This document shows positions 50,455-52,502 of a stretch of DNA of 64,000 nt, one piece after another. Below the pieces are notes generated by a model that was not told the DNA's origin, made no database searches, and was given only the letters and a program-made list of their open reading frames with translations. The DNA is from Promethearchaeota archaeon (lineage in GTDB: Archaea; Asgardarchaeota; Lokiarchaeia; Sigyniarchaeales; SOKP01), in contig JAGXNO010000001.1 of NCBI GenBank assembly GCA_019894975.1, positions 32,001 through 96,000 on the forward strand, written 5' to 3'. Both the position numbers and the translations under genes were made by a program. The first letter of the stretch is position 1. Each line of letters begins with the position of its first letter.

Positions 50455-50841
50455 ATGGATCCTGATCATAAAAAAGAAATTTTGGATAAATTGATTAAAT
50501 GTGAAGATATAAATAATCCAGATCTTCATTTCAAACAATTGCGTGAATTAGGTAATCACTTAATTCAAAATCCTAGTTTTGATGACTTAATTAAATTTGT
50601 AAACGCTGTTGCAAATAGAAAACGCCTAATAATTATTAATACATTAAAAGAGAAGGATCGATGTGTCTGTGAATTAGAAGCTGTTTTAGACGAGTCCCAA
50701 CCGGCCATATCACATCATTTAAAAATACTTGAAAATGCTGGATTGATTAGAGGATGGAAAAAAGGTAAGTTTACACATTATGACATTGTTAAAGAACAAA
50801 TTATCTCATATATGGATATTTTAAATCAAAAATTAATATAA
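50455..50841 (+). CDS. arsR: ArsR/SmtB metalloregulator
   Basis: RCVCEL, SQPAISHHLKILENAGLI; divergent from acr3. Confidence 0.92.
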   Translation: MDPDHKKEILDKLIKCEDINNPDLHFKQLRELGNHLIQNPSFDDLIKFVNAVANRKRLIIINTLKEKDRCVCELEAVLDESQPAISHHLKILENAGLIRGWKKGKFTHYDIVKEQIISYMDILNQKLI

Positions 50842-50981
50842 ATAAGCCTTCCACTAAAATTAATAGTCTATAACTATTAAGTTTAAAAGCTAATCTAAGT
50901 ATTTTAATCGTAATCTAAAATTTAGATTTACTTGACATAATTTAATTTTAGTGAAGAAAATTTTTTGAAAACGTGAAATTT

Positions 50982-51230
50982 ATGGCAAAACCAGTACCAG
51001 ATACCGAAGAGTCAATGAATGAATGCAGAAAATTCTGTGGTCCTTGTCCTTCTTTCAAACCAAACCAACTCAATGAATTTGAACCTCATGCTCTATTCTG
51101 TTCAAGAGGAATATCACAAAAACCAAAAGACCAAATAGAAAACAAAGGATGCAGTTGTTTTGGATGTGGATTGTTCTCAAAGTATGAATTGGAAAAGGGA
51201 TTTTTCTGTGCACCTCATTTTCAACAATAA
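50982..51230 (+). CDS. DUF2769-like Cys-rich protein
   Basis: CGPCPSF, LFCSRG, GCSC..C, FFC. Confidence 0.75.
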   Translation: MAKPVPDTEESMNECRKFCGPCPSFKPNQLNEFEPHALFCSRGISQKPKDQIENKGCSCFGCGLFSKYELEKGFFCAPHFQQ

Positions 51231-51303
51231 AAAATTACTACTTCATATAATCTCTTTTTTTTTAATTTTCCTATGAAATTTTTATTAAATATTACAGTGA
51301 ATA

Positions 51304-51311
51304 TTTTAAAT
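51304..51311 (+). promoter_or_regulatory. Putative TATA box for a leaderless transcript starting near ATG 51333
   Basis: TTTTAAAT centred about 25 nt upstream of the leader ATG. Confidence 0.5.
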
Positions 51312-51332
51312 GTACAAGTATATCACAATATA

Positions 51333-51401
51333 ATGAGAATTAATTTTTCGAATAAGGTAAGAGTTCTTACCTCTTGTTGCTGTAGTACTTGTTGTTGTTA
51401 A
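51333..51401 (+). CDS. Cys-rich leader peptide MRINFSNKVRVLTSCCCSTCCC
   Basis: 22 codons, 6 Cys in the last 8; about 110 nt upstream of cysteine synthase. Confidence 0.8.
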   Translation: MRINFSNKVRVLTSCCCSTCCC

Positions 51402-51512
51402 ACAACAGTTTCATTAATTCTCAAATAACCATCAGAAATCTTTCTTTTATAAAACTCTCGTTGGTTAAAATTGTAGAATTTTAATTGTGAAATCTAAAAT
51501 TTGGGTGATAGA

Positions 51513-52502
51513 ATGAAGTCATTATCGTATAGTAGGGAAAAAGGAAAAATTGAATTTAATAATAAATTAAGAGTGTATGAAAGTATTGAAGATTTAATTT
51601 CAAATAGAGAAAATCCTTCACCATTGGTTAAACTAAATGAAAGAATTAATCCAAATAAGAATTTTCCGATTTATATGAAATTAGAGCGCTACAATCCTTT
51701 TGGATCAATAAAAGATAGAGTTGCTTATTCAATGCTTAAAGATGTAGTATTTAAGGAGGGGCAACGGATCATAGAACCGTCATCTGGGAATACTGGAATC
51801 GCTTTAGCATCATTAGCAAATGCGAGGGGTATTCCTATTGAAATAGCTGTACCGAGTAGAATTCCCGAAGAAAAAAAGATACTTTTAAAATTACTCGGTG
51901 TGAAAGAATTATGGGAAGCTGATGATAATCTATGTCCTAAGTTTCCTAATGAAGGGGCGAGAGGTGTTGTAAATGGAATATTGGAGAGTAAGGGTGGAGA
52001 ACGGTATTTTAATCCAGATCAATATGGAAATGACTTGAATGTAGAGGCTCATTATAGAACCACAGGTCCAGAAATTTGGGATCAAACTAATGGGGAAATT
52101 GATTATTTTTTTGCAGCTATGGGTACATGTGGCACTATTACAGGAGTTGGAAAATTCTTAAAAGAAAATAAACCCTCGGTTAAAATAATAGGAGTAGAAC
52201 CTTCAGAAACATTACATAATATACCAGGCTTGAAAAGAATAACTGACCTTGATGAAGATTTGATTCCAAAAATCTTAGATAAAACTGTAATTGATGAAAT
52301 TATTGAAGTAAACGATAAAGAAGCTTATAGAACCGGTATTGACTTAGCAAGAAAAAATGGCATATTAGTTGGGCCTTCTACCGGTGCAATTTTAGCCGCT
52401 GCTTTAAAGTATGCAAAATCACATGAAGGGATAGCAGTTATTATTGCCCCCGATGATGCTACTAAATATATTAGTTCATATGCGCCCTATATTAAAGAAT
52501 AG
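51513..52502 (+). CDS. cysK: Cysteine synthase family PLP enzyme (CysK/CysM/CBS)
   Basis: NPFGSIKDR, SSGNTG, HYRTTGPEIW, GTCGTITG; SD GGTGA before ATG 51513. Confidence 0.9.
   Translation: MKSLSYSREKGKIEFNNKLRVYESIEDLISNRENPSPLVKLNERINPNKNFPIYMKLERYNPFGSIKDRVAYSMLKDVVFKEGQRIIEPSSGNTGIALASLANARGIPIEIAVPSRIPEEKKILLKLLGVKELWEADDNLCPKFPNEGARGVVNGILESKGGERYFNPDQYGNDLNVEAHYRTTGPEIWDQTNGEIDYFFAAMGTCGTITGVGKFLKENKPSVKIIGVEPSETLHNIPGLKRITDLDEDLIPKILDKTVIDEIIEVNDKEAYRTGIDLARKNGILVGPSTGAILAAALKYAKSHEGIAVIIAPDDATKYISSYAPYIKE

Follow-up and report, generated by a model that had tools for sequence, protein, structure and literature searches.

A cysteine-codon leader before a cysteine synthase-family gene of an Asgard archaeon as a probable ribosome-stalling sensor of cysteine

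Upstream of a cysteine synthase-family gene (cysK) of a Promethearchaeota archaeon, a short leader rich in cysteine codons can be found, which is probably a cis-acting cysteine sensor operating by ribosome stalling. The leader lies in a window of 64,000 nucleotides (nt), the whole stretch of DNA that was analysed (GenBank assembly GCA_019894975.1, contig JAGXNO010000001.1, positions 32,001 to 96,000 of the forward strand), and positions given below are those of the window. The genome holding the window (3.9 Mb, 95%-complete) is designated G000, and other G numbers designate related genomes. A preliminary description of this DNA had proposed that a translated leader of Cys codons regulates cysK; such a reading is supported by comparative tests of the open frame, the linkage to cysK, the RNA helices and the promoter geometry. 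The leader consists of a micro-open reading frame (micro-ORF) and putative RNA helices (P1 to P4), and is followed by a Shine-Dalgarno (SD)-like motif and cysK (lengths in base pairs, bp, or amino acids, aa):

51293..51312, plus strand: leader promoter region, a TATA-like box with an adjoining imperfect palindrome
within 51293-51312, plus strand: imperfect palindrome (A/C)ACC(A/G)TGAATATT or (C/T)ACC(A/G)TGAATATT, which abuts the TATA box and is kept in 18 leaders
51303-11, plus strand: TATA-like ATTTTAAAT, with a TTTTAAA core from 51304, at -29 relative to the ATG
ATG 51333 to TAA 51399-51401, plus strand: leader micro-ORF of 22 codons plus stop, reading MRINFSNKVRVLTSCCCSTCCC
51334-44 with 51413-23, plus strand: 11-bp perfect inverted repeat by direct reading, TGAGAATTAAT with ATTAATTCTCA
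51334..51344, plus strand: P1 5' arm UGAGAAUUAAU, holding the UG of the start codon and codons 2-4, and pairing with 51413-23
51355..51372, plus strand: P2 hairpin AGGTAAG/CTTACCT, within the ORF at codons 8-14
51375-83 and 51390-98, plus strand: Cys codon clusters of the micro-ORF, by direct reading
51390..51407, plus strand: P3 hairpin TGTTGT/ACAACA, made of the final Cys codons, the stop codon and AACAACA
51413..51423, plus strand: P1 3' arm AUUAAUUCUCA, which begins 11 nt past the stop codon
51426..51467, plus strand: P4 hairpin UAACCA/UGGUUA, with a U-rich loop of ~30 nt containing 51439-48
51439-48, plus strand: T-rich stretch TCTTTCTTTT within the P4 loop
51475..51480, plus strand: AGAAUU box, complementary to AAUUCU (51416-21) of the P1 3' arm; candidate alternative helix P1'
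51503..51509, plus strand: SD-like GGGTGAT of cysK, a G-rich motif upstream of the cysK ATG (at -10 to -6 in G000)
51513..52502, plus strand: cysK/cysM-family gene for a pyridoxal phosphate enzyme of 329 aa with a PALP domain; the proposed regulated gene

When the window was read again, the micro-ORF from ATG 51333 to TAA 51401, encoding MRINFSNKVRVLTSCCCSTCCC, was borne out. The three pairings that had been claimed (the 11-bp repeat, the hairpin at 51355-72 and TGTTGT/ACAACA) were found where they had been placed, as were the TATA-like box before the ORF and the U-rich stretch at 51439-48 before the cysK SD. The cysK start was corrected, its ATG being at 51513. The last eight codons of the micro-ORF include six Cys codons, and no SD precedes it in G000 or in the other leaders.

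Rarity and predicted fold

The leader element is not a chance feature. Over the whole G000 genome, six or more Cys residues are encoded by only 7 of the 47,800 ATG micro-ORFs of 10-40 codons, and the MRINFSNKVRVLTSCCCSTCCC ORF is the sole intergenic one among those 47,800 to have two CCC runs. A micro-ORF containing CCCCC (C164:59081) runs antisense inside a 313-aa gene and was rejected. When 400 Asgard genomes were searched for the pattern CCC-x-CCC-stop, only these leaders and 3 chance matches were retrieved, the latter being antisense within genes, as compared with 5 matches for the control.

Regarding the RNA, the 99-nt element 51330-51428 folds at -24.2 kcal/mol versus -13.25 +/- 2.77 for shuffled sequences (z = -3.95, 0/200). 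The predicted fold is a three-way junction in which P1 encloses P2 and P3, joining the 5' end, start codon included, to the arm past the stop codon. No Rfam family matches over 50800-51700, the best scores being 11-19 bits against cut-offs of 44-140.

Distribution and linkage to cysK

Orthologues of cysK, i.e., genes whose products share 69-90% identity, were searched in 135 genomes of one Asgard family and are patchily distributed, with ten full copies in 9/135 genomes. The leader accompanies eight of the ten copies, and a ninth leader can be found in G018, where the contig breaks off shortly behind the initial cysK codons. By using a covariance model built from four leaders to search the genus and its relatives, one copy each was recovered in 7 of the 54 genus genomes, as well as a strong match in a second genus and, in a third, the divergent copy of G080, which gives 9 genomes and 3 genera overall. 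A broader search pattern, made of the features common to the most divergent copies, added 12 copies from metagenome contigs and 8 from the genome collection, along with six chance matches in which no Cys ORF is present. For all 12 metagenome and 8 genome-collection matches, cysK lies downstream if the contig extends far enough. The upstream ORF is hence conserved, with 19 distinct versions altogether, all of which are tied to a single cysK subfamily.

The reading frame is open in 19/19 versions, which have 21-23 codons and differ by whole codons only. Each version harbors 4-7 Cys, arranged as CC(C) plus CC(C)(C), and TAA stands directly after the final cluster in 19/19; the Cys codons vary synonymously between TGT and TGC. 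The peptide starts with MRI(N/K), or MRF in G080, and its middle residues turn over (FSNKVRVLTS, NQTKLGFLTF, SYVMVTNITS, FRQQNQPNSYF). Across the leaders, the cysK ATG lies 171-185 nt from the leader ATG in the same direction, with a G-rich SD-like motif just before it in every case. Only one copy exists per genome, and none was seen away from cysK in either the family genomes or the 400 Asgard genomes.

In the window, the genes upstream encode an ACR3 arsenite permease (minus strand), an ArsR/SmtB regulator and a Cys-rich DUF2769 protein, and cysK is followed by a gene for a 423-aa protein of no assigned family and then by an SMC operon. The leader and cysK directly follow ACR3, ArsR and DUF2769 in 6/9 genomes, and G077a retains only DUF2769 upstream. 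The upstream neighbour is a PEMT/ICMT-like gene in G080 and none was recognised in G115, both of which have the micro-ORF with cysK and no arsenic genes. DUF2769 orthologues are found in 17 of the 54 genus genomes. Eleven ACR3/ArsR/DUF2769 loci without this cysK are also without the micro-ORF, an AAA-like gene coming next in eight of them. Since the micro-ORF is absent from arsenic loci devoid of cysK and present with cysK in G080 and G115, these distributions indicate that micro-ORF, leader and cysK are gained and lost as one travelling cassette. Such behaviour is predicted for a cis-regulator, not for a peptide belonging to the arsenic locus.

This bears on the possibility that the micro-ORF encodes a working Cys-rich micropeptide (arsenite- or metal-binding, or redox-active), made together with cysK, in which case the RNA fold would merely tune the translation of its own ORF. 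As(III) binds well to three-thiol sites, it is the Cys clusters of the peptide that are conserved, and the cassette follows the arsenic genes and the Cys-rich DUF2769 gene in the six genomes mentioned above. However, the metallothionein-like micropeptide, which the preliminary description had offered as its alternative, is weakened by the 11 arsenic loci of the same genus that lack both cysK and micro-ORF, and G080 and G115 show the converse, a micro-ORF beside cysK away from arsenic genes. In addition, the number of Cys drifts from 4 to 7 even between near-identical leaders, the single copy per genome is always with cysK, and the Trp analogue before trpB2 (described below) would be left unexplained. 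A functional micropeptide is hence considered unlikely.

A precursor of a ribosomally synthesized and post-translationally modified peptide (RiPP), matured by neighbouring enzymes, can also be envisaged, as the peptide is short and Cys-rich and a radical-SAM gene is located beside cysK in G115 and G080. These two radical-SAM proteins are mutually unrelated, though (E = 0.09), and encoded on different strands; the remaining seven contexts have none, and the loci share no conserved maturase. With 21-23 residues and no separate leader and core regions, the peptide has a very slim chance of being a RiPP precursor.

Conservation and covariation of the RNA helices

Pairing was counted in an alignment of the 19 leaders fitted to the structure model. 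In this alignment, 96.8% of cells pair, versus 30-58% when the partners are slid, and four base pairs have changed on both sides. The P1 arms are near-invariant, synonymous sites included, and in the divergent G080 the core pairing AUGAGA/UCUCAU of P1 is kept despite a changed arm sequence. For P2, 94.7% of cells pair, and G027 has another stem, AUGUAAU/AUUACAU, in the same place. In P3, where 98.5% of cells pair, the observed A to G changes retain G-U pairing. In P4, 99% of cells pair, a U-A pair is replaced by C-G through a double change, and G080 has a different sequence that still pairs. The distance from the stop codon to the P1 3' arm is 11 nt in the four leaders measured and 10 nt in G077a owing to a 1-nt deletion.

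Downstream of P4, the AGAAUU hexamer is invariant in the 18 leaders other than that of G080, except for one A to G that is compatible with G-U pairing, and the TATA-like bases following it vary (TTTAAT, CTTAT, ATAAG, CTTTT, CTAAT). The candidate helix P1', between the P1 3' arm and AGAAUU, would exclude P1; the pairing sequences of both are conserved, those of P1' being invariant and only 6 bp long. Other candidate pairings were rejected. A helix P5, between the AGAAUU box and the UAAAAUU before the SD, is interrupted by C or A in several leaders. The pairing of UUUCAU with either start codon and that of CUCAAAU with AUUUGGG, the latter not conserved, are short AU-rich matches, of which about one would be expected by chance by rough estimate.

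An element acting through RNA only, i.e., a riboswitch-like or protein-bound three-way junction in which the ORF is a by-product of UGU-rich strands, would account for the strength of the fold, for P1 arms that do not vary even at synonymous sites, and for P2 and P4 sequences that change yet still pair. It does not account for a frame that stays open across unrelated middles and indels (chance ~0.13 per independent lineage, a base-composition estimate made with no tool), for an ATG at the exact leaderless distance from the TATA in all versions, or for a stop directly after the Cys run in 19/19. As the Rfam search gave no family and the Cys codons agree with the function of the downstream gene, an RNA-only element appears quite improbable.

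Promoter and start-codon geometry

The TATA motif and the TATA-ATG spacing are fixed in 18/19 leaders, the bases in between being variable. Genome-wide in G000, a G peak at -14 to -8 before start codons indicates that SD use is common. In genes without an SD, TATA-like heptamers that begin at -33 to -29 form a peak of about two-fold, and genes with an SD are depleted of TATA at that position. The micro-ORF, devoid of SD and with its TATA starting at -29, matches the class of SD-less genes. Because no SD is present and the TATA-ATG spacing is fixed, the micro-ORF probably starts a leaderless mRNA. The membership of cysK in the SD class points to its translation from a longer mRNA. In-frame upstream starts, ATG 51273 and GTG 51297 (the latter in G000; ATG in several relatives), would extend the micro-ORF across the TATA; they are probably unused, the extended frame being closed in G077a.

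A AGAATTTTAAT box was considered as a TATA for cysK and is disfavoured, since it stands at -34/-35 of a gene bearing an SD and its AGAATT is fixed when its TATA-like part varies. Such a pattern fits better with AGAATT being an RNA partner for the AAUUCU of the P1 3' arm than with a promoter. As for the palindrome that abuts the leader TATA, it may be a transcription factor B recognition element (BRE) or an operator, for ArsR or another regulator, and may thereby add a layer of transcriptional control.

More generally, the inverted-repeat arms (ATTAAT-type palindromes) and the TATA palindrome could be DNA operators bound by a repressor such as ArsR, acting on initiation or as a roadblock. An ArsR/SmtB regulator is encoded upstream in six genomes, the conserved imperfect palindrome overlaps the BRE/TATA region, and the P1 arms are invariant rather than covarying. 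On the other hand, G080 keeps the complementarity of the arms (AUGAGA/UCUCAU) without ATTAAT palindromes and with no ArsR nearby, the arms are 68 bp apart, unlike one operator, and the ORF, P2, P3 and P4 would be left unexplained. Operators as the whole explanation are therefore very unlikely, although they would be compatible with the leader mechanism as a second layer of control.

Proposed mechanism and points weighing against it

For the cysteine sensor proposed here, it can be hypothesized that the AUG or a neighbouring nucleotide is the start of transcription and that a ribosome loads on RNA still being made. With ample Cys-tRNA(Cys), this ribosome would pass both Cys clusters and terminate at the stop codon, whereupon the 5' end with the start codon would pair with the arm 11 nt past the stop, and P2 and P3 would fold. 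The resulting compact P1-P2-P3 junction would be the low-cysK state, and since the start codon would be hidden in it, the first ribosome alone would report. When Cys-tRNA(Cys) is scarce, a stall on the Cys codons (51375-98) would keep P2 and P3 open, and ribosomes queued over the 5' arm would leave the junction unable to close. The freed P1 3' arm would then pair with the AGAAUU box (P1') and cysK expression would go up. Regarding the output, fewer transcripts ending in the U-rich P4 region and better access to the cysK SD or start codon are about equally likely.

The preliminary description had held that stalling at the Cys codons during cysteine limitation switches on cysK, and had noted the U-tract before the cysK SD. 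The sensor part of this claim is backed by the comparison of the leaders. Termination at the U-tract is not supported as such: a T-run of at least four is found in the P4 loop of 14/19 leaders, is T6 at most, and does not come after a terminator stem. An intrinsic terminator, in which a stem is directly followed by a U-run, was not found before cysK, the U-rich stretch being in the P4 loop. At the end of the DUF2769 gene, a T9-T10 run occurs in all loci with or without the cassette (window 51231-51275; L086-L100), and looks like the usual terminator of the genus.

Several points weigh against the proposed sensor. The U-tract is weak (T4-T6 versus T9-T10 after DUF2769), and a T-run of at least four is missing in 5/19 leaders. 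Covariation is real but thin, amounting to four pairs, owing to the close relatedness of the leaders; the alignment itself had been fitted to the model. P1' consists of six AU-rich bp that do not vary, so that covariation cannot support it. A conserved helix masking the cysK SD was looked for among the leaders and none was found; likewise, folding of nine leaders under a ribosome mask (free, stalled on Cys cluster 1 or 2, or at the stop codon) revealed no consistent change in the accessibility of the cysK SD or AUG. The leader transcription start site, the co-transcription of micro-ORF and cysK and the translation of the micro-ORF are all inferred from sequence features, and cysK may have a second promoter within the leader. 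Furthermore, a thiol-rich peptide would also fit the arsenic locus in which most genomes have the cassette, and the exact reaction of the enzyme is uncertain given its scores below NCBIfam cut-offs and the lack of a CysE (see below).

The cysK enzyme and the origin of the cassette

The best matches of the cysK product are cysteine synthases, with 267 bits for TIGR01136, under the cut-off of 344, and the CysM and CysK entries of the PDB match it at E 1e-52. In view of the score below the NCBIfam cut-off, the sequence assigns it as a divergent member of the cysteine-synthase family. No clear serine acetyltransferase (CysE) was found in the 95%-complete G000 genome, and the enzyme may for this reason use O-phosphoserine or another acceptor. 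Regarding the charging of tRNA, CysRS is present in G000 (495 bits) and SepRS was not found in this genome; Cys-tRNA charging should therefore follow free cysteine. The position of the cassette beside arsenic genes suggests a link between the supply of cysteine and thiol-based detoxification.

Relatives of the enzyme at 69-73% identity are labelled Deltaproteobacteria and Planctomycetota (P0073, P0087, P0099, P0114; L133-L139), which suggests that the cysK subfamily has moved by cross-domain transfer. At four distinct bacterial loci, the gene lies beside sulfite reductase-TusA, PAPS reductase, ThiF and a second cysK, and these neighbourhoods support a role of the enzyme in cysteine synthesis. 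Import of the leader from bacteria was considered and rejected, as no poly-Cys micro-ORF can be found at the 4 distinct bacterial loci, where cysK is 69-72% identical. The absence of a leader at these loci indicates that it is an archaeal addition to cysK.

The two orthologue copies that lack the leader, in G021 (L008, G021:C71) and G077b (L050, G077:C2), are located in sulfur-assimilation clusters, with CysE, an Rrf2-family regulator and a second cysK in the former, and PAPS reductase, a TauE-like exporter and sulfite reductase in the latter. Protein-based control may replace the leader in these clusters. No poly-Cys ORF was found at other cysK paralogues (~40% identity). Before one of them (L002, G000:C120, upstream of 61855; L013-L020), two conserved small Cys-containing ORFs occur in many genomes, one of 39 aa beginning MHCGQAMHKEGEQLVCWMGASCGAQPIPEHHGK and one of 28 aa, MLYWNGKECGYRPADCLVCEKCLEKGCK; both look like zinc-finger microproteins, not like codon-run leaders.

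A tryptophan-rich leader before trpB2

The preliminary description had also suggested that cognate-codon upstream ORFs be sought before other biosynthetic genes. When the whole of G000 was scanned for micro-ORFs that are enriched in a single amino acid and precede long ORFs, one more convincing case emerged, a Trp-rich micro-ORF before trpB2. A poly-Leu micro-ORF near an acetolactate-synthase-like gene (C160:5938) was discarded, being out of frame inside the gene. The two features of the Trp locus are the following:

L102:2033-2089 (G000 contig C98), minus strand: Trp-rich micro-ORF MTLASNLNWCWQWPWRSR, intergenic, without SD, with a TATA-like motif ~-29 from the ATG
L102:468-1871 (G000 contig C98), minus strand: trpB2, 218 nt downstream of the Trp micro-ORF

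The Trp micro-ORF is present in 25/30 family loci, with a core W(C/R)WQWPW(R/S)W and 3-6 Trp codons. A hairpin at its stop codon displays compensatory changes (GGCGUU/AACGCC versus GGUCUU/AAGACC), and U-runs lie 20-55 nt past the stop, runs of five or more being nearly universal. It is probably a Trp-sensing leader, judging from these features, and no paper was found on a Trp leader before trpB2.

Both leaders can be found in the same genomes and share the absence of SD, a TATA at about -29 and cognate codons at the 3' end of a micro-ORF of 15-24 codons. In both, the stop codon lies within a hairpin, U-rich runs follow 20-55 nt later, and the biosynthetic gene, which has an SD, is ~210 nt away from the leader ATG. 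They differ in that no sequence relation exists between them, in their distribution (25/30 loci for Trp versus 9/135 genomes for Cys), and in the clear compensatory changes and near-universal U-runs of at least five that are found in the Trp leader. The occurrence in one lineage of two unrelated cognate-codon leaders of the same design gives more confidence that both are ribosome-based sensors.

Relation to known attenuators and significance

Attenuation by leader peptides is known from textbooks as a bacterial mechanism, and it relies on transcription and translation being coupled. Like the classical bacterial attenuators (trpL, hisL, leuL, pheL, thrL, ilv), the Asgard leader has a 3'-terminal run of cognate codons before a biosynthetic gene, and structured RNA followed by a U-rich stretch, with P1/P1' as a candidate exclusive pair. 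Unlike them, it exhibits no GC-rich terminator stem with a U-run, its start is probably leaderless rather than SD-led, and its U-rich stretch is inside a hairpin loop and not present in all leaders. Since archaeal RNA polymerase needs no hairpin to terminate at U-tracts, the bacterial 3:4 terminator logic is not simply transferable.

In mycobacteria, polycysteine leaderless small ORFs have been proven to act as attenuators that respond to cysteine (Canestrari et al., bioRxiv 10.1101/834739). In this 'Cys ribulon', e.g., at Ms5788A, the stalled ribosome frees a duplex masking the SD, and pairing of the leader is required (10.1101/834739). The mycobacterial attenuators and the Asgard leader are alike in having a micro-ORF with at least two consecutive Cys codons 5' of cysteine or sulfur genes, and the mycobacterial sensor, ribosome pausing at scarce Cys-tRNA, is the one proposed here. 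While the start is leaderless in mycobacteria, the Asgard leader displays the leaderless geometry only (no SD, TATA at -29). It also differs by its archaeal TATA/BRE promoter and its archaeal translation and termination machinery, and no sequence relation can be detected. Moreover, no conserved counterpart of the SD-masking duplex of Ms5788A was found in the Asgard leader, where, unlike in Ms5788A, the micro-ORF's own start codon is locked in the three-way junction of the predicted fold. Finally, the mycobacterial attenuators form a multi-locus regulon, whereas the Asgard leader occupies one locus per genome.

Full-text literature searches aimed at leader-peptide attenuation in archaea, Asgard archaea included, found no report in Archaea. 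Judging from the conserved features described above, the Cys leader is most likely a kind of control published so far only for bacteria, here present in Archaea. A wider view, which is favoured on balance, is that Asgard archaea sense amino acids (Cys and, before trpB2, Trp) with leader peptides encoded by leaderless micro-ORFs whose start codon would be locked after the first ribosome, and that, in its output, such sensing would be fitted to the hairpin-independent termination of archaea or to their translation initiation.

The analysis flags a class of unannotated genes that is missed by standard annotation. If the wider view is true, control of the attenuation type would for the first time be seen in Archaea, having arisen independently of its bacterial counterpart. 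It would give a handle on the coupling of transcription and translation in Asgard cells, as well as on regulated termination or translational control with archaeal machinery. The closest prokaryotic relatives of eukaryotes would then gauge amino-acid supply by ribosome pausing on upstream ORFs, which would bear on whether nutrient sensing based on such ORFs predates eukaryotes.

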